From: a virus
Taxonomy: Duplodnaviria > Heunggongvirae > Uroviricota > Caudoviricetes
Length of the DNA: 21,197 nucleotides
Strand: one strand, 5' to 3'
Virus record (IMG/VR): IMGVR_UViG_2713896790_000003
Shown here piece by piece: positions 7,580-19,241 of this stretch. The notes under the pieces are model-generated. The model had not been told where the DNA came from, did no database searches, and worked only from the letters and a program-made list of their open reading frames with translations. The first letter of the stretch is position 1; every line of letters starts with the position of its first letter. A program made the translations under genes and the position numbers.

Positions 7580-7584
7580 TATAC

Positions 7585-8688
7585 TCAAACAATCTGGAAA
7601 ATATTTCTTGGATTTGTAATAGGTCTGTTGATGGAGAACAACTCACGAATTAAATCTTGGCTCAAGCCAGTTTTCATAAGAATTCTTAGCCAGGTTGCAT
7701 CATCCAGCATTTCAATCGCCTCGGCCAGCATGCCGGGTTCTTCAGGGCGCAAAAGTTCATCACCAGGTTCAACTCTCGTATACCCTCTGGAATTAAGATG
7801 CATATAGCCAGTTCTTGCCTGTTCCTGGGTCAATAAGCCTAATGCGCTGGCTCGATAAATACACATTTTAAGGCTGATTTTCCATCTAAGTTTAAATTCA
7901 ACCAGAGCATTCCAGTCGAATTGCTTACCTCGTATTCGTGGAAATTCTTTAATGAAAGATAACCTGGGAACTAATAAGGCGCTCGAAAAGTGATCGGCTT
8001 GTGATTCCGTAAGTTTATCACCTGTCGTTATGCCCTCATGCATTACTAAATGCCCTAATTCATGACCTAAATCAGAGCGAAATCTACATATGCTTTTTTT
8101 AACATTGTTCCTGATGATAACAGGCCTGTTATTGTGAACAGTAAAAGCATCAACACGATCATCGACTCCCGTAACATGCGCAACGATTACCCCTAAACTC
8201 TCCGCCAATTTAACCATTGATGATATAGGGCCAAGACCTAAATTCCAGGCACGGCGACAATCTTCTGCCACTCGCTCAATATCATTCGGAGTAAGTAATT
8301 CAGCCCCTGGGTGCTCCGGTATGTTAACGTCAGGAAATTCGATTTCACCTTCAACAGCAGAAATTATAATATTAAGAATCTCAGCCCTGGCCAATACACT
8401 ATTAGTCAGCGTTTGAGTCCTGGACTTCTTACTCCGAAAATGGCAGACATCACTTTCCAGAGCGTATTTTCGTTCAGTAAAAAGAAAACTGGACTTAATC
8501 ATAAGCGCTGAAGATATTAACTCAAGACATTGCTCCGATGGCCTGCACCCCTTCTCCAGTTTGCTAACGAATTGCTTTGTCTTGCCAATTTTTTCGGCTA
8601 ACTCTTCACAAGAAAGCCCAACAGCCATTCTCGCTAGTTTGAGCTTATCACCCCGATACTCAGTGAAGTTATTCACCTGATGTTCCAT
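7585..8688 (-). CDS. Fused XRE-family HTH / ImmA-IrrE (M78-type) zinc metallopeptidase
   Basis: 367-aa ORF from ATG at 8688 (track start is a GTG one codon upstream). N-terminal HTH LSCEELAEKIGKTKQFVSKLEKG; central HEXXH motif in SDLGHELGHLVMHEG; about 100 extra C-terminal residues. Overlaps the upstream gene by 20 nt. Confidence 0.85.
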   Translation of the reverse strand: MEHQVNNFTEYRGDKLKLARMAVGLSCEELAEKIGKTKQFVSKLEKGCRPSEQCLELISSALMIKSSFLFTERKYALESDVCHFRSKKSRTQTLTNSVLARAEILNIIISAVEGEIEFPDVNIPEHPGAELLTPNDIERVAEDCRRAWNLGLGPISSMVKLAESLGVIVAHVTGVDDRVDAFTVHNNRPVIIRNNVKKSICRFRSDLGHELGHLVMHEGITTGDKLTESQADHFSSALLVPRLSFIKEFPRIRGKQFDWNALVEFKLRWKISLKMCIYRASALGLLTQEQARTGYMHLNSRGYTRVEPGDELLRPEEPGMLAEAIEMLDDATWLRILMKTGLSQDLIRELFSINRPITNPRNIFQIV

Positions 8689-9319
8689 CACTGCTCACAT
8701 CCAAATCTTTATCCTTCGTACGCCGACGAAGAGGCACCTTATTAATCTCCGCTTCGTCAGGGAGTGTGTTATAATCAAGAGGCATAAGCGGCATCGATGC
8801 TGTAGATTGATGAGAAACTATACTAATCTGAGCACCATAAGTATTAAATCCAACAAGAGCTACCTCCCAACGAGGCAGTGTGGACTCTAATTCACCATCG
8901 CCCTCTTCGGATAAAAAAGGCTCAGCTATGACTCGCCATGTAATATCTTGCTCAGCCTCAACATCACCAAACAATGAGAGCTGCTCATACTCTACTTTAT
9001 TTCGACGCAGACGATGTTTCTTTTTGGGGTTATTAATGCAATCTTTGGTAAATTGTAGCGGAACTTTATTTAAAGCAACTACATAGTCCAACCCCTTGGA
9101 AATCATCTCAAGGCCAGGAATTGCATCTTCATTTTGAATAAGATGATTTCTGACCCAATCATAAGCCCTTACACCTTCAGACCAGTTGCTGTCTAATGCG
9201 TGCTTATGATAGTACAGCTGCTCAAGTACGTTAGCGATCTCCGCCAACAAGTGGCGAACATAGTTTTCAGCAAGATAAGGTTGAAATTCCCAACAAGGAG
9301 CTAACTGATTTTCATTCAT
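8669..9319 (-). CDS. Hypothetical protein (216 aa), first gene of the cassette, no recognisable domain
   Basis: ATG-initiated ORF MNENQLAPCWEFQPYLAENYVRHLL...; acidic, no HTH, no transmembrane segment, no catalytic motif I can identify; weak Shine-Dalgarno. Confidence 0.7.
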   Translation of the reverse strand: MNENQLAPCWEFQPYLAENYVRHLLAEIANVLEQLYYHKHALDSNWSEGVRAYDWVRNHLIQNEDAIPGLEMISKGLDYVVALNKVPLQFTKDCINNPKKKHRLRRNKVEYEQLSLFGDVEAEQDITWRVIAEPFLSEEGDGELESTLPRWEVALVGFNTYGAQISIVSHQSTASMPLMPLDYNTLPDEAEINKVPLRRRTKDKDLDVSSDGTSGE

Positions 9320-9354
9320 TTCAAGTTTCGCTTTTTTTAGAATTCGTAAACCAC

Positions 9355-9383
9355 ATATTTTCGCATTTTTCTATTTTTGTCAA
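9355..9383 (-). promoter_or_regulatory. Putative promoter of the two-gene cassette
   Basis: Perfect -35 TTGACA (9383-9378) on the minus strand, about 60 bp upstream of the 216-aa ATG; the -10 is only moderate (AAATAT or GAAAAT). Confidence 0.35.
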
Positions 9384-9390
9384 CCAGACT

Positions 9391-9416
9391 AATGCAAAAA
9401 CCCGCCGAAGCGGGTT
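9391..9416 (-). terminator. Rho-independent terminator downstream of hokD, insulating the cassette
   Basis: Hairpin cccgccgaagcggg (9401-9414) followed on the minus strand by tttttgcatt; same stem-loop sequence as the terminator at 7566-7579. Confidence 0.6.
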
Positions 9417-9484
9417 AAGTGCGGGTGCGTTGAGGATGCCTGGCACATCAGAGGTGGCGGGAGATTACTCCCCCGCCGGGTCTC

Positions 9485-9640
9485 TTACTCCTCAGGTTCG
9501 TAAGCTGTGAAGACAGCGACCTCCGTCTGGCCGGTTCGGATTCGTACCTCGCAGAGGTCTTTCCTCGTTACCAGTGCCGTCACNATGACGGTTAAACAGA
9601 TGACGATCAGGGCGATTANCATCGCCTTTTGCTGCTTCAT
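9485..9640 (-). CDS. hokD: Hok/Gef-family type I membrane toxin, HokD (RelF)-like
   Basis: 51 codons MKQQKAMxIALIVICLTVxVTALVTRKDLCEVRIRTGQTEVAVFTAYEPEE with RBS AAGGAGAAG; matches E. coli HokD as I recall it. Two codons contain ambiguous bases (n at 9584 and 9599). The 70-aa track ORF is an in-frame upstream extension. Confidence 0.8.
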   Translation of the reverse strand: MKQQKAMXIALIVICLTVXVTALVTRKDLCEVRIRTGQTEVAVFTAYEPEE

Positions 9641-9841
9641 AGCCTGCTTCTCCTTGCCTTTCGGCACGTAAGAGGCTAACCTACGTGTGTAGAGCATAGA
9701 TATGGCCTCAGATTAATGTTAAGCGTCTTGCCGGACGCGTAATGTTAACTGGGGCTTTTCTCTATCTGCCTTTTGGTGTTCATGCCTGAGACAGATAGCC
9801 TCAAGCACCCGCTGCAATTCTACTTAACTCTCCTTTTCCCG

Positions 9842-9925
9842 CAAACCGTTTTTATCCCCAGCGGCAAATCGAATACACCACCAGCGCCACCGCCATCGCA
9901 ATTCCTACCGTTGTTAATGCTTCAG
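9842..9925 (-). CDS. Possible small hydrophobic peptide (27 aa)
   Basis: [27 protein letters not shown]; its ATG overlaps the stop of the upstream 114-aa gene (ATGA). Below the ORF-track size cutoff. Confidence 0.3.
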
Positions 9926-9931
9926 GCCAGG

Positions 9932-10276
9932 TCATCGTAAAATATCCTCCACGCTTATCAGTCCGTTCCGCTCCAGATAACTCATCGCCTTATCCGGTAA
10001 TTTGCAGTCTGGCTTCGCTTTCCTCAGTTGCCAGGTTAACTGCTTTACCAGCATGGTTAACTCATCGACCAGACGCTGATATCCCACTGGTTTGTATTCA
10101 TGCAATTTACCGGCTGGCTCTGCTGCCAGCGATACCAGTGCGATTTCCAGAACAGCAATATCCATCTTATATGTGCGGATGATGTCATGGTCGATTGTGC
10201 CCGGTATGCACAGTCTCTGTGCTTCAATAGTCTCCTCTGCGTGAGCTATTAACTGCTCTCTGGTAAAAGTCGTCAT
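9932..10276 (-). CDS. Hypothetical protein (114 aa)
   Basis: ATG start overlapping the stop of the upstream 55-aa gene (ATGA); N-terminus [12 protein letters not shown] resembles that of the neighbouring 55-aa ORF. Confidence 0.55.
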
Positions 10277-10440
10277 GCCGTAGCCCCTTCTTGATATTTT
10301 TCAAACCAGAACACAACCGGCTCTGCTTCCAGCGATGCCAGCGCAATCCGTGCCAGTTCCATTTGTTCACCACGGGTAAGCCCGTTTTCAAGCGGGTTTT
10401 TAATGAACAATTCAATACGTTCTTTGGTAATAGTGGTCAT
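10273..10440 (-). CDS. Hypothetical small protein (55 aa)
   Basis: [20 protein letters not shown]...; strong RBS TAAGGAGT 5 nt upstream of the ATG; below the ORF-track cutoff. Confidence 0.5.
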
Positions 10441-10450
10441 GTGTTACTCC

Positions 10451-10714
10451 TTAACCCGCAGTGCTTTCAACTGATGAGGGGAACAAAATCTTTTCATCAA
10501 ACCCTGCATTCATATCATGGACAGCAACACACCAATCCATTGACGAACGATTATCAAGAGCCTCCATGATTTCATCCATGCGGCGCAGGTCATACAGGTA
10601 AATGCTTTTATCGCCAATGGTGTAAAAACCAATTTTTTTCGGTGATGGACAGCGATCAAGAACGTCCTGTAATTCGTTCAACCATGCCTGTTCTTTTTTT
10701 GTCAAAGTTGCCAT
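10451..10714 (-). CDS. Hypothetical protein (87 aa)
   Basis: Trimmed to ATG at 10714 (MATLTKKEQAWLNELQ...) with RBS AGGAAAA; the longer track ORF would overlap the upstream gene. Confidence 0.5.
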   Translation of the reverse strand: MATLTKKEQAWLNELQDVLDRCPSPKKIGFYTIGDKSIYLYDLRRMDEIMEALDNRSSMDWCVAVHDMNAGFDEKILFPSSVESTAG

Positions 10715-10715
10715 A

Positions 10716-10934
10716 TCAGTTTTCCTTATACGGATTAATTTTATTGTGCAGTGTGTTGAACGGAGCCCATACCACGTCGTTATACAATTCAATAACTGGC
10801 TCAATTATTTTTCCGATTCCCCATACCAGAATTAACGGGGATATCGGTATCATCAACACGATAAACAGAATGAGAAACAAAAATTCTGTCGCTCTACTTT
10901 TTCGCGGATATTCTTTTCTGAATAATGTAGGCAC
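10716..10934 (-). CDS. Hypothetical small membrane protein (72 aa)
   Basis: GTG start preceded by AAAGGAGAG; hydrophobic stretch FLFLILFIVLMIPISPLILVWGIG. Confidence 0.5.
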   Translation of the reverse strand: MPTLFRKEYPRKSRATEFLFLILFIVLMIPISPLILVWGIGKIIEPVIELYNDVVWAPFNTLHNKINPYKEN

Positions 10935-10935
10935 A

Positions 10936-11151
10936 TCACTCTCCTTTGTTGCTCCTCAAAATTTTATGCCCTGGCGCAAAAGCACGCGTTTTGTCGGCAC
11001 TTATTCGCCACCCATCTTTACGTGCCTCTTTTGCACAGCCAGCCCATGACGTACCGATATACTCACCAAAATCTGGCGACTGATATTTGCCATCCGTACA
11101 CTGGCGGCAATCACAATAGAGATGCATGGTATAACTTGCGGCAATACCCAT
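10936..11151 (-). CDS. Hypothetical Cys-rich small protein (71 aa)
   Basis: ATG start with strong RBS AAAGGAGG; motif CDCRQC...C suggests metal binding. Confidence 0.5.
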   Translation of the reverse strand: MGIAASYTMHLYCDCRQCTDGKYQSPDFGEYIGTSWAGCAKEARKDGWRISADKTRAFAPGHKILRSNKGE

Positions 11152-11511
11152 TCAGCCTCCTTTGATGCCCGTGTTTACAACCAGGCAGGCCTCCTTGAGT
11201 ACCCAGTCAATAGCGTCTTTCCATGCTCCGGTTTCAACTGGCGGATCCTCACGCCGTACCTGTTCATAAAAGCGCACAGCTTTAACCAGTCCTTCTGATG
11301 TCACCGAAGCTGGCGGGGCCGTGAATAACGCCTGAATTTCATAGTTTGGTCTGTCGTTACAATCCTCTTTTGTCGGGACATATTTCCAGTCACCAACCCA
11401 CTGCTTCCCCTGAAAGTCTGTAACGCCTTTTTTCACGTAGCGATATCGCCATGCCACTGGTTTTGCCTGCCCTACCTTTTCATGCCCTTCCTGATAATTA
11501 ATCTCGCTCAT
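11152..11511 (-). CDS. Hypothetical protein (119 aa)
   Basis: ATG start overlapping the stop of the upstream 58-aa ORF (ATGA). Confidence 0.55.
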   Translation of the reverse strand: MSEINYQEGHEKVGQAKPVAWRYRYVKKGVTDFQGKQWVGDWKYVPTKEDCNDRPNYEIQALFTAPPASVTSEGLVKAVRFYEQVRREDPPVETGAWKDAIDWVLKEACLVVNTGIKGG

Positions 11512-11684
11512 TCATCGCCCCACTCATCACAATATGCTTCGACCGGTGTTTTCCCTGCTTCATAATCATCACGCCATGCTTCAGCATCAGCGGCACTTCC
11601 ACCGCGTAACTCTGCATAATCCATTAACAGTTCATGCCATTCTTCAAAACTGGCGTTATATTTAGTTGAACCAAAATCAGCCAT
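11511..11684 (-). CDS. Hypothetical small acidic protein (58 aa)
   Basis: MADFGSTKYNASFEEWHELLMDYAELRGG...; coupled at both ends to neighbouring ORFs; below the ORF-track cutoff. Confidence 0.4.
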
Positions 11685-11859
11685 TTTGTTCTTCCTCTTC
11701 GTCTTTTATTTCGTGGTATGAGTAATTGCAGTAGTTAAAGAAAATATCTTTAGCTTCATCCTGTATTTCATCTGGTGTTGCATCATCATCCACTTCGAAT
11801 TCATCCTCGAAATCTCCACCGGCTATTCCCGTTTCAATAATTATTTTGAATTTTCGCAT
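11677..11859 (-). CDS. Hypothetical small acidic protein (60 aa)
   Basis: ATG-initiated ORF, highly acidic (DFEDEFEVDDD...EEEEQNG); 8-nt overlap with the downstream ORF. Confidence 0.45.
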   Translation of the reverse strand: MRKFKIIIETGIAGGDFEDEFEVDDDATPDEIQDEAKDIFFNYCNYSYHEIKDEEEEQNG

Positions 11860-11954
11860 TTCACTACCGCCCTTTCGGACGGCCTCCTGATGTTCTGAGG
11901 GTGCAGAAATCCCTCCGGTTAAGGATTTGATTTTATTTACAGTGCTAAATTTAA

Positions 11955-12311
11955 TTATTCAGTTCTGGATTTTGTCGCCCTGCATATCCGCGCTTTCGCG
12001 TTACGCTCAATCTGAATTAACTTTTCTATATTTTTCCGCCTTTCCTGTTCCTCCTGGCGCAATAGCCTTACATCATCTGCCAGTCTGGTTTCTCTTTTCG
12101 CCACAGAGAGCATCCAGTCAAACGGCTCCACAACTGCACCGCAGATTTTACAGCGGACCTGACGCTCTTTTTCGTCAACCCGAACAGAGGCGTGATGACA
12201 ATATGGTCTTTCCGATGGCTCATAAAGAAAATTAACCTGATTACGAGGGTCATCCTCTTTTACCGGAAATAAAACGATATTGCTTAACTCATCCTCTGGT
12301 TTTATTTCCAT
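11955..12311 (-). CDS. Hypothetical protein (118 aa) with possible zinc-ribbon
   Basis: ATG start; CHH...CKIC motif; 23-nt overlap with the upstream gene. Confidence 0.5.
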   Translation of the reverse strand: MEIKPEDELSNIVLFPVKEDDPRNQVNFLYEPSERPYCHHASVRVDEKERQVRCKICGAVVEPFDWMLSVAKRETRLADDVRLLRQEEQERRKNIEKLIQIERNAKARICRATKSRTE

Positions 12312-12750
12312 GCTCCTCTCCTTTGATGCGAATGCCAGCGACGCGTAATGCGTGTTCTAAGTCAATCAGGTAAAGCCAACTGCCATTTTCTTTAGGTATC
12401 ATGACATGTCGCTCATCTGCATTTATCGGGTGTCCATATCGAAGGTCGTAGCGAGTCGGTAATTGAACTTCCCGCGCTTCCAGTTCAGCAATACGCTTGC
12501 TCCCATCAGAGATAACGCCTTCGTAATACTCACGCTGCTCTTTGAGTTGTGATTTTGCTTCTTCCAGTCCATCCAGCAAATCAGCGATAATATCCGCTTC
12601 CCGATGACGGATGTGACGCTTAAACGCAGCAAGAGCCGCATCACAATCCCGTTCAGCATTTGGGCTGTCCGGGATAGCCTGATACCACGCCAGCGTCGAC
12701 TGATAGTTTTGTGCTGCCTCACGAAGCGCCTCATAGTTAACCTCTCTCAT
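12289..12750 (-). CDS. Hypothetical protein (153 aa)
   Basis: ATG start overlapping the DUF4406 stop (ATGA). Confidence 0.55.
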   Translation of the reverse strand: MREVNYEALREAAQNYQSTLAWYQAIPDSPNAERDCDAALAAFKRHIRHREADIIADLLDGLEEAKSQLKEQREYYEGVISDGSKRIAELEAREVQLPTRYDLRYGHPINADERHVMIPKENGSWLYLIDLEHALRVAGIRIKGEEHGNKTRG

Positions 12751-13043
12751 TGAGCCACCTCCTGATAAATCACTGCATGCCCCAGTTTCTCCGCCAGTGC
12801 CAGCTCTGCCTTAGCGCCCGCTGACCGCTGCCAGCCATTCAGCATGTAAATCGCATCCACACAACGAATCATTGCCATGCAAATATCCATGTAGTGCGGC
12901 TGTGTCAGCCCGTCCGGAAGTACTGCCGGGTTTAAGACGGTATGCCCTTCCCGTTTCAGTTCCTCTTCCGCCTTGTGAAACGCCTCACGGTTGAAATTTT
13001 CATATCCCGTCATTGGACCGGCAATATAAACTCTGACCCTCAC
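12747..13043 (-). CDS. DUF4406-like protein (nucleoside 2-deoxyribosyltransferase-like fold)
   Basis: 99 aa from a GTG start preceded by AGGAGG; VRVYIAGPMTG...NREAF...GHTVLNPA...W..SAGAKAELALAEKLG matches the DUF4406 pattern as I recall it. Confidence 0.65.
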   Translation of the reverse strand: MRVRVYIAGPMTGYENFNREAFHKAEEELKREGHTVLNPAVLPDGLTQPHYMDICMAMIRCVDAIYMLNGWQRSAGAKAELALAEKLGHAVIYQEVAQ

Positions 13044-13432
13044 TCCATCACCTCCTGAAAGTTTCCCCGATAGAACGCCAGCACACGCTGCATAACTTCG
13101 CTCTGGCGGCACTCACGACAAATTATGTTCTGCCGTCTGTTGTAACGACGTATTTCTCCGTCAGGTAACTTTCGAATCAGTGTCGGGTCAGCAGCCTTCT
13201 CCGGTGTCTTACGCCATACGCGATACGCCTGCTCTGATGGAAATACCCCGCAACCAGAGAGCCAGACATCACCACTGGCCGCAAGCGCACCAGATAAACG
13301 ACGAATAGCGGTCTTACTGACACCCGTTTTATCTGCCAGTTGTCGAAAAGTTTCTCGTCCGCTCAGGCGCACGAATTCCACAATGCGCGCCTTCACTTCT
13401 TCCCGCTCTTCTGGTGTAAATACTTTTGCCAT
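13040..13432 (-). CDS. Hypothetical HTH-containing protein (130 aa)
   Basis: ATG at 13432 preceded by GGAGG (the track start at 13447 is TTG); HTH-like LADKTGVSKTAIRRL; C-terminal CRECRQ. Confidence 0.5.
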   Translation of the reverse strand: MAKVFTPEEREEVKARIVEFVRLSGRETFRQLADKTGVSKTAIRRLSGALAASGDVWLSGCGVFPSEQAYRVWRKTPEKAADPTLIRKLPDGEIRRYNRRQNIICRECRQSEVMQRVLAFYRGNFQEVME

Positions 13433-13447
13433 AAGCGCCTCCGGCAA

Positions 13448-14218
13448 TCACTTTTCCGATACAACACGGCGGGAAGAATCAGTAATCTGTCGAACAATAT
13501 CCCGGTGCTTGTTCACCTCCCGCAGCGCGGCGCAGACTCGCTCCCACTTCTGAACATCACTTTTCGCCCTGCGCAGCGCCAGGTTTGCCCTGCGAAGGGA
13601 CGGAAAAATCAGCTCATCTGCTTGCGTTTCGGTAAACGATGGCAACGGCTGCACAATGTCCGCCACAGTTTCTGTTTTAATTTCTTCCTGTGTTGCGGCT
13701 TCCCGGACTGGTAACGCAGCACCTGCTGGCTGAGGAAAGGCCTTACCATCACTTTCCGTTACCAGCGCGGCTTTCGGCTCTGCTGGTAAATTATCGCCCG
13801 GCATGCAGTAACGAAATTTATCGTTCTGATTAACGCGTGCCAGCCGCCCCGTTGCGGTTACCACCGCCAGCGTGGAGGCAACCTTGCGAGTACTGACGCC
13901 GAACTTACCCGCCAGTTCCTCACACGTTTTAGCACCATCCTGACCGATAAACTCAATCATCATGTCTGCGGTAACTTTTTGTTCGACCTCCCCGGTCAGC
14001 ATATCCTGTGCTTCAGATTTTACTGGCCGCTCTTCGGTTACCCGGGATTCACCTTCGCCAGCCAGAAACCAGGTGTGACCAGTTTTATCAACGACGCCAT
14101 TTCTTTTGAGTTCCCACAGCTCGTTGAGAACCTCTTCACGACTGATATCAAGTCGCGCGGCCAGTTCTACCGATGTGGCTTTTCCCATTGCTTTCAGTGC
14201 GTCAAATACGGTTTCCAT
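13448..14218 (-). CDS. Hypothetical protein (257 aa) with two winged-helix-like segments
   Basis: ATG at 14218 preceded by GGAGG (track start is TTG); two similar segments ([17 protein letters not shown] and [17 protein letters not shown]). Confidence 0.55.
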
Positions 14219-14251
14219 TAAAATTTCCTCCGACAAAATCGTTTCTCAGAT

Positions 14252-14917
14252 TCAAATAAAACCAGCTGCCTTCCGGCGTTCGTATTCCTGTTTCAGCCGT
14301 TCAATTGGCGTTGGCCCTTGCGGGTGTTTCGCCCCTTCCAGTTGTCGTCGCACTGGCGGAACACTCATCCCGTTACCAACATGCTTTGCCCATTTCGTCA
14401 GTTGCCGTTCCGCAAGTCGTTTTAACTCACCCTGCGTCATCTGGCGCTCAATCCCTCTGGTACGCATTTCGAGGCAGATGTGGTACAGCACAGGCTGAGG
14501 CCACGGATATTTGTCGCTTCCGTCATATCGCCAGGATTCATCACGCCAGCGGCGGTACTCCTCCATCACAGCATCCACCGTCAGGCCAAATGGATTGGCC
14601 CCGCTTTCTGAAATCAGCGCCACAAACTCAGCCAGGTCCGGAGGCCATGTTTCACCCGCCCGGCAGCGGTCCATGCACTGGCGGCAGACCTGTCGGATTT
14701 GCTGCTCAGTCATCGCGCCAATCTGTGCAATCCAGAGCTTCGAAGGTGCGGCCCCGTTCTTCTGGGTCCAGCGGTTCGAATAAACCTCCCCCATGAGTTC
14801 CCACAGCTTCCAGACCGTTTCCGTCGCTGATAAATCCGTTTTCACGTTCCCACTGCTCACGTGCTGCCCGAATTTCCTGAACTGCCCGTGATGCGGTGCC
14901 ACCTGGTGCTGCTGCAT
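14252..14917 (-). CDS. Lambda P-like replication protein (helicase loader); start uncertain
   Basis: C-terminal two-thirds align by eye with lambda P (YPWPQPVLYHICLEMR... against YPWKSNAHYWLVTNLYQ..., FVAL against FVAW). Frame is open back to ATG 14917 (RBS AAGGGGG), overlapping the O-like 3' end by 212 nt; alternative starts at 14794 and 14713. Confidence 0.6.
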   Translation of the reverse strand: MQQHQVAPHHGQFRKFGQHVSSGNVKTDLSATETVWKLWELMGEVYSNRWTQKNGAAPSKLWIAQIGAMTEQQIRQVCRQCMDRCRAGETWPPDLAEFVALISESGANPFGLTVDAVMEEYRRWRDESWRYDGSDKYPWPQPVLYHICLEMRTRGIERQMTQGELKRLAERQLTKWAKHVGNGMSVPPVRRQLEGAKHPQGPTPIERLKQEYERRKAAGFI

Positions 14918-15752
14918 GGTTTACCCCCTTGCTGACTGGCTTAACCTGCGCCCTGACGTGATTTACGTGACGGGCGAATTTCTGCTCCCACTGAACCTGC
15001 GTGAAAACTTTCCCCTCCGCTGCCCAGTAGTCCCGGAAAGCGGCAAGTTCAGCAGGTGTAAATTCCGGCTCCGGCAAAGCCATCCCCCACAACGCAGCCC
15101 GTCGTCGAAAATCCGGCGACGGATGCCAGTCATCGACCATCGGAAATTTCCCGATGGGTTCGCTCAGTCCATCCAGGGATGCAGGTTCTGCTGCCTGCAA
15201 CGGCGTACCACTCGACTCACTGGTCGGAGCACTCTCGCGCACGTGCGCGTTATGTGTGGGGTTTAATTCTTTATCTGTATCTTTATCTGTCGTGACTCGT
15301 CGTGACATGTCGTGACATATGCGTGACTCGTCGTGACACCCCTCATTCTGTTTTCGTAATTTTTCCCTCTCGCGCTGCGCTCTCTTGCGCTCTGCCGGGG
15401 ATTTCGCGGTTTGTGAAACGTTGCCATTGTCCTCTTTCAGTACCTGGCGTTTTTCCCATCCGGTGATTAAATCTCCATCAAGTACCCGCCCCTGCATTGC
15501 CTGTAAAATTGAATCAATTACTTCTTCCGTCACATCAAGCGCACTTGCTAAATCTTCCGTCGTGACATCAATGTGACCACGTAGTGACACGCCGTGACAT
15601 GTCGTGACATTTCGTGACGCGCTCACCAGAAGGTGGATATACACTGCCATCACTGTTGCAATTGGCTGCCCTGACACCCTGGCAATTGTTCGCCACTTAG
15701 GGTCATTTGGCATGTCATGCCATAATCTGAGCCAGGCGTTAGCCATACTCAC
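14706..15752 (-). CDS. Replisome organiser (lambda O-like) replication initiator
   Basis: 348-aa ORF; N-terminus MANAWLRLWHDMPNDPKWRTIAR resembles the replisome-organiser N-terminal domain; lies between a cII-position gene and the P-like gene; contains iteron arrays. Confidence 0.65.
   Translation of the reverse strand: MSMANAWLRLWHDMPNDPKWRTIARVSGQPIATVMAVYIHLLVSASRNVTTCHGVSLRGHIDVTTEDLASALDVTEEVIDSILQAMQGRVLDGDLITGWEKRQVLKEDNGNVSQTAKSPAERKRAQREREKLRKQNEGCHDESRICHDMSRRVTTDKDTDKELNPTHNAHVRESAPTSESSGTPLQAAEPASLDGLSEPIGKFPMVDDWHPSPDFRRRAALWGMALPEPEFTPAELAAFRDYWAAEGKVFTQVQWEQKFARHVNHVRAQVKPVSKGVNHAAAPGGTASRAVQEIRAAREQWERENGFISDGNGLEAVGTHGGGLFEPLDPEERGRTFEALDCTDWRDD
15291..15340. repeat. Iteron array 1 (putative origin), five ~10-bp direct repeats of consensus GTCGTGACAT
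   Basis: cgtgac recurs at 15291, 15301, 15311, 15322 and 15332; flanked by the AT-rich tract tttaattctttatctgtatctttatctgt (15262-15290); inside the O-like gene. Confidence 0.55.
15563..15620. repeat. Iteron array 2, six ~10-bp direct repeats of the same GTGAC-core motif
   Basis: gtgac recurs at 15563, 15574, 15584, 15594, 15604 and 15614, within the N-terminal coding part of the O-like gene. Confidence 0.5.
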
Positions 15753-15817
15753 CTCTTCTGATACCGAATCTTTTTACTCACAAATTGCCGGAAGTGATCC
15801 GGTATGAATATTGCGAG

Positions 15818-16243
15818 TCAATGCACAGCCACAATATTTCCTGCAGGGCCACCACGATTCATCTGGTTGAAACCAGCGATCGCCACTGCGACAAAATCAT
15901 CAGCGTCTCTCACCAGTCGTTCCCGCGTCTCCACCAGCTCCCGAAAATAAGCTGAACTGTGGCTGCGCATTCGGGCCACCAGCAGAGGCGGCATTGCTTT
16001 TTCGATCGCTGGTAACAACGCCTGAATTTTTTTAACCGCATCAGGAGTGTCTTTCTCCACCCAGCGGAAAATTTTCTGGGTATTGCGAGCCAGGGCTTCC
16101 GGATGGCTGTCGTCATATAATTCCGGGAACGTCATACCAAGCTCAAAATAAGCCCGGGTTATTTCAGCTGCCGGAACTTTTTCACCGTCCGGATGCGCCC
16201 AGGCATTCATCGCCATGCGGATGTGCTCATGCCTGATTTTCAT
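15818..16243 (-). CDS. YdaT-like protein in the cII position
   Basis: 141-aa ORF MKIRHEHIRMAMNAW...IVAVH; resembles Rac YdaT as I recall it and sits directly after the Cro-like gene with a 17-nt overlap. Confidence 0.5.
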   Translation of the reverse strand: MKIRHEHIRMAMNAWAHPDGEKVPAAEITRAYFELGMTFPELYDDSHPEALARNTQKIFRWVEKDTPDAVKKIQALLPAIEKAMPPLLVARMRSHSSAYFRELVETRERLVRDADDFVAVAIAGFNQMNRGGPAGNIVAVH

Positions 16244-16502
16244 GAATCAACTCCGATGCATTTGGTGTGTTAGCCTTGAATCCAACAGGTAAGCCGTCGG
16301 TTGGATTCGGGTAAATATCAGGCCGGAGTTCATGAGGTGTAACCTCGAAATTCGTTACTTCAGCAACACGTAATGCTTTTTCAGGGCTGAATCTTTCATA
16401 GCCCCCCAGCACTCGACTTACATGCACCTGAGATAAACCCGTTAGCTTCCCAAACTGTAGCTGGGTGATATGTTTCTCTTTTAAATAGTCTCTTAAGTTC
16501 AT
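16227..16502 (-). CDS. Cro-like / DicC-like HTH regulator
   Basis: 91 aa from ATG at 16502 (the track start at 16508 is TTG); HTH LQFGKLTGLSQVHVSRVLGG; divergent from the repressor gene. Confidence 0.55.
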   Translation of the reverse strand: MNLRDYLKEKHITQLQFGKLTGLSQVHVSRVLGGYERFSPEKALRVAEVTNFEVTPHELRPDIYPNPTDGLPVGFKANTPNASELIHENQA

Positions 16503-16508
16503 AGCCAA

Positions 16509-16609
16509 CCTTCTACGTTATGCCTCGAGCAAATATTAGCCCCGCTAATTTTAAAGATCAATAGCCAGACTATCTTTGATAATATTGGTAAAACAAATAA
16601 ACTCTATGT
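16509..16609. promoter_or_regulatory. Divergent promoter/operator region between the Cro-like and repressor genes
   Basis: AT-rich 100-bp intergenic region with inverted repeats (ttagc-ccc-gctaa at 16536-16548; atcaa...ttgat near 16558-16585). Confidence 0.5.
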
Positions 16610-17071
16610 ATGAAAAAAACACGCGAAGTGATTGCAACTCCAGAAGCGAGCAAGAATTTAAAAGCCGCATGGAATGCAAGAAAAAAAGAGCTGAAGCTGA
16701 CTCAAGAGCTGGCGGCTGAGTTGTTGGGATTCGAATCTCAAGGCACCGTTAGCCAGTATCTGAACGGCAAGATACCGGTAAATACCGACGCTGCGCTAAA
16801 ATTTGCGGCTCTGTTAAAGGTAAAACCAGAGGACATTCGAGAAGACCTTAAAGACTTAATGAATTATGTAAGATCATCAGATACTTATGATGATAACTTT
16901 TCAGGCAAAGGATGGAGGCTGGTCAATGAAGAACAGGCAGAGTTACTTAACCTCTTCGAGATTCTACCTGCGTCAGAAAAAGCCAAACTCCTTAACCAGC
17001 TACGTGGACTAAACAAGCTCTACGAGGAAGCCTTCGAGAACATGCTGGCACTAAAGAAACGTAACCAGTAG
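16610..17071 (+). CDS. dicA: DicA-like prophage repressor, no LexA-type autocleavage domain
   Basis: 153 aa; HTH LTQELAAELLGFESQGTVSQYLNG; C-terminus ...LFEILPASEKAKLLNQLRGLNKLYEEAFENMLALKKRNQ parallels the DicA C-terminus as I recall it; no Ala-Gly / Ser-Lys peptidase segment. Confidence 0.7.
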   Translation: MKKTREVIATPEASKNLKAAWNARKKELKLTQELAAELLGFESQGTVSQYLNGKIPVNTDAALKFAALLKVKPEDIREDLKDLMNYVRSSDTYDDNFSGKGWRLVNEEQAELLNLFEILPASEKAKLLNQLRGLNKLYEEAFENMLALKKRNQ

Positions 17072-17096
17072 CCACCGCTCACTACCCCATCCACAA

Positions 17097-17128
17097 CAAA
17101 AAAACCGACGTCTTAGTCGGTTTTTTTG
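17097..17128 (+). terminator. Rho-independent terminator after the repressor gene (bidirectional in form)
   Basis: Stem accgac / gtcggt (17104-17109 and 17116-17121) flanked by an A-run upstream and T-run downstream. Confidence 0.65.
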
Positions 17129-17224
17129 TGCCATAACTTCTGCAAATCAGCTGTATAACTAATATTTTTCCCTTGAAAAAACATTTACATAGTTACCAAA
17201 TCAAAAATATCATACGCCATACTG

Positions 17225-17253
17225 TTGACTTAAAATATCCGCGTTACTAATAT
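17225..17253 (+). promoter_or_regulatory. Candidate sigma-70 promoter for the dicB-type operon
   Basis: TTGACT (17225-17230), 17-bp spacer, TAATAT (17248-17253); about 70 bp upstream of the YdfA-like ATG. Confidence 0.5.
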
Positions 17254-17324
17254 TTCTATCAAGAACAGCACGGCGCTGTAGGTTTTAGTTCCGCCACCCG
17301 GCGTTAAGGGGAAATGAGGTCAGC

Positions 17325-17464: not shown

Positions 17465-17514
17465 NNNNNNNNNNNNNNNNNNNNNNNNNNNNNNNNNNNN
17501 NNNNNNNNNNNNNN
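17465..17514. other. Assembly gap (50 N)
   Basis: Run of n characters; true length and frame across it are unknown. Confidence 0.95.
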
Positions 17515-18703: not shown

Positions 18704-18761
18704 TTTCTGGTGACTTTTGGCGGTATCAGTTCTACTCCGTGACTGCTCTGCCGCCCTTTTT
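18704..18761 (+). ncRNA. dicF: DicF small regulatory RNA (ftsZ-targeting) with 3' terminator
   Basis: tttctggtgacttttggcggtatcagttctactccgtgactgctctgccgcccttttt is near-identical to E. coli K-12 DicF as I recall it (three or so substitutions), ending in a U-run. Confidence 0.8.
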
Positions 18762-19050
18762 AAAGTGAATTTTGTGATGCGGTGAATGCGGCTCAGCGCA
18801 CGCGGAACAGTTAAAACAAGCGGTCTTTTACGGGCGTAACGGGAATGCTCTGTATCCGACGTTAATTGTTAACTGGTTAACGTCACCTGGAGGCACCAGG
18901 CACCGCATCAACAAAGTTCACTTCGGTGATGAAAGGTAGAGAAAATGTTGAATGTAGCTATTGAAAACCAGAACGGGTGGAATTATAGTGCACCTGCACC
19001 TCATAAAACGGGTGCCGGGCGTGGAAACCCGAAATCATTCACGGCGCATA

Positions 19051-19072
19051 ACCGCGCTCAGGCGGTTTTTTT
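19051..19072 (+). terminator. Putative rho-independent terminator between dicF and the Rha-like gene
   Basis: Stem accgc / gcggt with loop gctcag, followed by ttttttt. Confidence 0.5.
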
Positions 19073-19241
19073 ATGCGTTAAGCACAGCCACATTCGCATT
19101 ATGGTGGGGCGTGCAGGGCAGCCGCAAGGCTGGCCGGGTTCCGTGATGACCGGTATTTCCACCCCTGTACGTCTCACCACCCTTATGGTCGTGGAAAACC
19201 TCGGTGGTGAGTTAATCAAATTCATCGCGGAGGCTGCCATC

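Follow-up and report, generated by a model that had tools for sequence, protein, structure and literature searches.

The closest described relative of the locus analysed here is the hokW/mokW/sokW cassette of Shiga-toxin phage 933W, which has carried that annotation since 1999 (AF125520). E. coli K-12 hokC/mokC/sokC (gef) is a further, chromosomal reference, and the hok/sok loci of plasmid R1 and of IncF plasmids possess tac, fbi, ucb, the mok Shine-Dalgarno (SD) sequence, dcb and Sok, and match the same Rfam model; the canonical mechanism is summarised in PMC9841398. K-12 also encodes hokD (relF) in the Qin prophage, where it is co-transcribed with relBE, as recorded for the relBEF operon (PMC5120126).

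We analysed a 21,197-nt stretch of DNA, which we refer to in full as the window. Positions 9397-9845 most probably hold a complete hok/mok/sok type I toxin-antitoxin (TA) cassette of the hokD/hokW type, which belongs to the early-right (nin-like) part of a Qin-like lambdoid prophage (probability about 0.92, judged from sequence). As a type I TA locus the cassette is canonical and already known, and all sequence elements needed by the canonical R1 model are present and arranged at the locus (Table 1). The earlier note on this DNA had described a toxin gene standing alone and had left its expression and restraint open. We find instead that mok, leader and Sok homology make up a complete cassette with the known hok/mok/sok layout, and that the K-12 operon is the derived one.

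Table 1. Features of the hok/mok/sok cassette and RNA genes elsewhere in the window.
Feature	Coordinates	Strand	Basis or remarks
hok (hokD-type) toxin gene	9485..9640	minus	51 codons plus stop; ORF listing, Pfam, hokD annotation in identical genomes
mok reading frame	9485..9697	minus	70 codons, in frame with hok, common stop codon
mok SD (GAGG)	9706..9709	minus	8 nt upstream of mok ATG
hok mRNA leader	9635..9810	minus	Rfam 'sok antitoxin (CssrC)' RF01794, model positions 1-157 of 157
Full-length hok mRNA (predicted)	9397..9810	minus	about 414 nt, from GGGUGCUUGAGG to the terminator U-tract; both ends predicted
tac (translational activator)	9799..9810	minus	mRNA nt 1-12
ucb (anti-SD) box AAGCCCC	9751..9757	minus	pairs with mok SD (closed form) or tac (open form)
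fbi (fold-back inhibition)	9423..9434	minus	CUCAACGCACCC; complements the mRNA 5' end; just upstream of the terminator
Intrinsic terminator hairpin	9399..9416	minus	AACCCGCTTCGGCGGGTT plus T-run; terminator scan
Putative hok promoter	9817..9845	minus	-35 TTTGCG (9845-9840), 17-nt spacer, -10 TAGAAT (9822-9817)
Sok antisense RNA (predicted)	9689..9762	plus	about 71-77 nt; homology to annotated sokW and sokC
Putative sok promoter	9654..9682	plus	-35 TTGCCT (9654-9659), 17-nt spacer, -10 TAACCT (9677-9682)
STnc100 (two copies)	1993-2202, 2480-2670	minus	Rfam
Three tRNAs	2749-2995	minus	Rfam
DicF	18705-18756	plus	Rfam
isrK	18996-19072	plus	Rfam
C4 antisense RNA	19097-19184	plus	Rfam

The window cassette and that of 933W are 92.7% identical in DNA sequence and share the preceding 27-codon ORF, an in-frame 70-codon mok and the 18 nt by which the Sok hairpin is extended; their tac and fbi sequences are identical. 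They differ downstream of fbi, where they have no terminator in common, and in position: the phage map places the 933W cassette close to its right end, in another gene neighbourhood. HokW differs from the window Hok in a few C-terminal residues. K-12 hokC shows 75.5% DNA identity and likewise has an in-frame mok, but lacks the 18-nt extension, and on its 3' side it is bordered by IS186. The IncF plasmid loci that we examined have mok (annotated as DUF5431) out of frame with hok, whereas mok of the window is in frame, and their Hok proteins are more distant.

The hok ORF translates as MKQQKAMxIALIVICLTVxVTALVTRKDLCEVRIRTGQTEVAVFTAYEPEE (9640-9485, minus strand) and is preceded on the same strand by an SD sequence, AGGAG, at 9654-9650. 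The encoded protein is K-12 HokD; it matched Pfam PF01848 (HOK_GEF) over 42 of 42 profile positions (82.9 bits against a cut-off of 22, E = 1.2e-23) and PHROG 251, 'MokW-like host killing', with E = 2.8e-33. These results bear out the earlier description of a HokD/RelF-like 51-codon ORF with its own ribosome-binding site. Exactly two isolated ambiguous bases occur in the window, at 9584 and 9619. Both had been correctly placed inside the toxin ORF, and 9584 had been correctly numbered, but the second base had been given as 9599. N9619 occupies the first position of codon 8 (NTA, encoding Leu, Val or Ile) and N9584 the third position of codon 19 (ATN, encoding Ile or Met). Neither codon can be read as a stop, and codons 8 and 19 are CTA/ATT in NCTC86 and TTA/ATA in K-12 and 933W, in every case Leu/Ile, so the concern that the integrity of hok was unconfirmed is settled. 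The N bases aside, the 561-bp region is identical to that of many complete genomes, including NCTC86 and ABU 83972. On the alleles compared, sites 9619 and 9584 are synonymous polymorphisms among hokD alleles, and ambiguity arising from several hok copies in one assembly would fit.

Codon 47 of hok (9500-9502, minus strand) is a Tyr codon, TAC, that lies within GCUUACGAA, a TadA-type UACG editing motif. At the aligned codon-47 position, K-12 hokD mRNA is reported to be edited from Tyr to Cys at a level of ~6% (PMC12214031).

Upstream of hok, an Rfam scan of the whole window matched RF01794 to the leader with 117.1 bits (gathering score 59, E = 1.8e-26). The RF01794 model follows the hok-sense strand; position 1 corresponds to the mRNA 5' end, GGGUGCUUGAGG, at 9810; the full-length covariance-model match covers the leader structure, comprising the tac stem, the antisense target hairpin and the SD/dcb hairpin. 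We transferred coordinates from two independently annotated loci, 933W (AF125520) and K-12 hokC, and both gave the same hok start (9640), mok start (9697) and Sok 5' end (9689). By alignment, the ATG at 9697 coincides with the mapped starts of 933W mokW and K-12 mokC, and all three positions align exactly between the window and K-12 hokC. The GAGG mok SD of R1 occupies the same leader position as in the window locus (PMC9841398). On the plus strand, the 933W sokW annotation maps to 9689-9759 and that of K-12 sokC to 9689-9765. The Sok RNA predicted in this way complements the start codon and SD of mok as well as the target hairpin; its predicted fold (-29.7 kcal/mol) leaves 9 nt single-stranded at the 5' end and contains a long hairpin. 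At ~9723-9740, an 18-nt GC-rich insertion, ACGCGTCCGGCAAGACGC, makes the Sok target hairpin longer than in hokC and the IncF plasmid loci; common to 933W hokW, it is the only peculiarity of the window cassette. The region upstream of hok had been read as holding only a 27-aa ORF. That ORF exists, but the mok start and the RF01794 leader lie there too, and the suggestion in the earlier note of a Sok-like antisense RNA and leader fold within 9641-9840 was well placed, as indicated by RF01794, the sokW and sokC alignments and the predicted folds.

For mRNA folding, we replaced the N bases with those of NCTC86. In the minimum-free-energy fold of the 414-nt transcript, nt 1-11 (9810-9800) are paired with nt 377-388 (9434-9423), which is the tac/fbi pairing, and the mok SD is paired with ucb (9757-9751; nt 56-61 with nt 101-106). 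The predicted tac/fbi duplex has an energy of -21.5 kcal/mol, equalled in 15 of 2000 shuffles of the 3' UTR, and, at ucb, AAAGCCCC is invariant across five loci. The alternative partners of tac are fbi, the adjacent segment 9791-9782 (metastable 5' hairpin) and ucb. When the leader was folded by itself, or the mRNA was trimmed at its 3' end, the 5' end (tac) was predicted to pair with nt 19-29 (9791-9782) in a local hairpin, the counterpart of the metastable hairpin of the R1 model; in the Rfam consensus, tac is paired with nt 54-60. Enforcing the tac stem of the Rfam model gave a structure 11.8 kcal/mol worse than the closed form for the full-length RNA and 2.3 kcal/mol worse after removal of fbi. 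In the minimum-free-energy fold of the 3'-trimmed mRNA the mok SD was still paired, and the open, translatable form was not obtained. A switch triggered by processing is compatible with these calculated energies, not predicted by them.

The pairing of the 5' and 3' ends through tac and fbi was also recovered for 933W, an E. fergusonii plasmid, a Klebsiella IncF plasmid and the IncF plasmid of Enterobacteriaceae ENNIH2. The IncF plasmid loci have a 5' end of GGCGC against GGGUGC in the window, with fbi changed to match: the pairing is GGGUGC:GCACCC in the window versus GGCGC:GCGCC in two IncF plasmid loci, a compensatory change. This comparison leaves out two decayed hokD-type plasmid cassettes. 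In one (L005, NZ_CP033632.1), IS421 follows hok immediately and fbi is gone; the other (L006, NZ_CP117639.1) retains only a weak leader remnant (65 bits) without an annotated hok. A Shigella locus (L008) gave no match in the Rfam search.

A generic sigma-70 consensus scan of 9300-10000 listed neither the hok nor the sok promoter, and we therefore infer both from position and homology. The hok promoter went unlisted because its -35 box matches the consensus at 3 of 6 positions; the sok promoter matches at 7 of 12. The hok -10 box sits 6 nt before the mRNA 5' end, and the position of this TAnAAT element is kept across five aligned hok loci. For sok, 7 nt separate the -10 box TAACCT from the Sok 5' end at 9689. 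The scan returned a single promoter-like site in this interval, on the minus strand at 9722-9693, against a chance expectation of 0.7. Folding and an antisense promoter search, both proposed in the earlier note, had different outcomes: the leader and Sok folds were found, but the consensus scan did not list the putative sok promoter.

Alignment to hok/sok and relBEF loci, another check proposed there, recovered the full layout in the hok/sok loci and relBEF homology only from 9654. K-12 hokD shares with the window gene its protein, prophage type and position, and the K-12 relE-hokD region aligns without interruption from 9654 to 9395, at 97.7% identity. Upstream of 9654, which is 14 nt before the hok ATG, the K-12 alignment shows no similarity, and K-12 carries relE there, ending 71 nt upstream of hokD. 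As the earlier note had stated, neither relB nor relE lies directly upstream of hok in the window, and the locus is not a relBEF operon. What K-12 hokD retains is its SD, coding sequence, fbi and terminator; the hok promoter, tac, ucb, the start of mok and the whole sok gene are missing. Because homology ends at 9654, K-12 hokD also lacks the sok promoter, of which one base of the -35 box is left. In K-12, everything upstream of hok position -14 was replaced when relBE integrated, and with these elements lost, K-12 hokD depends on the relB promoter. A statement in PMC6379469 (citing Ramisetty & Santhosh 2016) gives the ancestral hokD ORF as ~70 codons, cut to 51 by relBE integration, and passages in PMC7232551 and PMC12214031 (citing Pedersen & Gerdes 1999) describe K-12 hok loci as inactivated by insertion elements, point mutation or rearrangement. 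The layout without relBE is the common, ancestral one, and the K-12 relBE-hokD arrangement is derived, truncated and rearranged.

The intact layout is present in 2385 of 5426 complete E. coli genomes (at least 80% of the 561-bp query), and the relE-hokD junction in 1164 of the 5426. Beyond these genomes, the intact layout is found in 62 phage records, most of them of Stx phages, and on P1-like plasmids, in whose copies homology starts only at the -10 box (query positions 24-34). The whole window is collinear with the Qin-like prophage of NCTC86, with 99.65% identity over 14.7 kb.

By analogy with the R1 model, a weak constitutive promoter would produce the ~414-nt hok mRNA, which in its full-length form would be stable, untranslated and closed to Sok, with 5' tac paired to 3' fbi and ucb holding the mok SD. 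Slow trimming of the 3' end would take off fbi, the 5' end would refold onto ucb and the mok start would be freed; translation of the 70-codon mok frame would then let Hok be made. Short-lived Sok, transcribed from the opposite strand from ~9689, would cover the mok start region and block translation, and the Sok-mRNA duplex would be marked for RNase III. Once the supply of Sok stopped, the processed mRNA would be translated and Hok would damage the inner membrane. It is by such analogy that we assign transcription, processing, in situ toxicity and a biological role to this cassette. According to a statement in bioRxiv 10.1101/2025.08.07.668861, chromosomal hokA, hokB and hokC were unable to mediate post-segregational killing, so an intact architecture is no proof that the cassette is active. 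The uncertainty concerns the activity of the cassette, not its identity.

That same report on hokA, hokB and hokC is why an appreciable minority of the probability stays with a structurally intact but functionally silent cassette, a passenger relic in a cryptic prophage, transcribed and kept in check, that never kills or stabilises anything. The poor match of the hok and sok promoters to consensus is in keeping with such silence. We nevertheless consider it unlikely: all regulatory elements are preserved, the identical sequence is found in many unrelated strains, and inducible Stx phages as well as P1-like plasmids have this cassette too. The HokD peptide is, moreover, toxic upon expression, its coding sequence being toxic if overexpressed (bioRxiv 10.1101/2025.08.07.668861).

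It is considerably less probable that hok expression comes chiefly from transcripts reading through from the prophage early operon upstream, instead of from the hok promoter, much as K-12 hokD is expressed from the relB promoter. The hok promoter is one that we infer, the 114-aa and 27-aa ORFs precede hok in the same orientation, and in the scan of 9300-10000 no terminator was found to separate them from it. However, a transcript extended at its 5' end would be without the free 5' tac end that the fold needs, and homology of the P1-like plasmid copies starts only at the -10 box, which together make read-through unlikely; in addition, loci with unrelated upstream DNA keep the -10 box and precisely the same 5' end. 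Practically no weight remains for the possibility, raised in the earlier note, that the upstream region is a decayed or truncated relE/relB remnant without antisense RNA. A tblastn search of the whole window with K-12 RelB and RelE gave a best E of 0.88, elsewhere in the window and not near the locus, K-12 homology is absent upstream of 9654, and the region is a full-length hok/sok leader; the Rfam leader match, the K-12 alignment and the tblastn search together rule the remnant out. The preferred reading is the complete hok/mok/sok cassette.

The surroundings of the cassette differ from those in K-12. Across window positions 9655-17286, which hold early and replication genes, K-12 has relB-relE-ydfV-flxA-ydfW-ydfX-dicC-dicA instead, and window positions 7581-9394 have no counterpart in K-12 Qin, which has rem after hokD. 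Directly downstream of the hok terminator we observed a RosmerTA-like defence/TA pair, two overlapping genes on the minus strand (7585-9319): a 216-aa ORF (8669-9319) matched PADLOC RmrT (E = 4.6e-25), and a 368-aa ORF with HTH and Peptidase_M78 domains (7585-8691) matched PADLOC RmrA (E = 6.2e-105). Since block 7581-9394 is absent from K-12 Qin, this prophage spot holds different TA cargo in different strains; the cargo near hok in the nin-like/DUF968-Q spot is RosmerTA in the window and relBE in K-12.

On the other side of the cassette lies the hydrophobic 27-codon ORF (9935-9852, minus strand), whose start overlaps the stop of the upstream 114-aa ORF (ATGA) and whose end is 7 nt before the putative hok -35 box. 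We found the peptide at full length in 91 phage records (55-96% identity), mostly unannotated, and it had no family match in Pfam, NCBIfam or PHROG. As the P1-like plasmid copies are without this ORF, we place it outside the hok cassette. Elsewhere in the window, the matches to STnc100, tRNAs, DicF, isrK and C4 antisense RNA (Table 1) are typical of lambdoid prophages. A run of 50 N at 17465-17514 is probably a scaffold gap; NCTC86 has ~198 bp there, in the ydfA-ydfC region.

A broader proposal, which we regard as doubtful and offer tentatively, is that the nin-like/DUF968-Q spot of Qin-like prophages may be a TA/defence hotspot around a resident hok/sok, with hokD/sokD acting as a prophage-retention or abortive-infection module and the 18-nt extension insulating it from other hok/sok copies. 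The extension might affect the specificity or the termination of Sok, and TadA-type editing of hok codon 47 is a possible extra layer of control on toxicity.

RefSeq annotation of identical genomes lists 'hokD' only and omits mok and Sok, so that a reader working from K-12 could take hokD for an unregulated orphan. The main use of our result is correct annotation: the K-12 relBEF operon is the rearranged exception, and the N bases are no threat to the ORF. The hok cassette beside the RosmerTA-like pair also illustrates how TA and defence cargo clusters in prophages.
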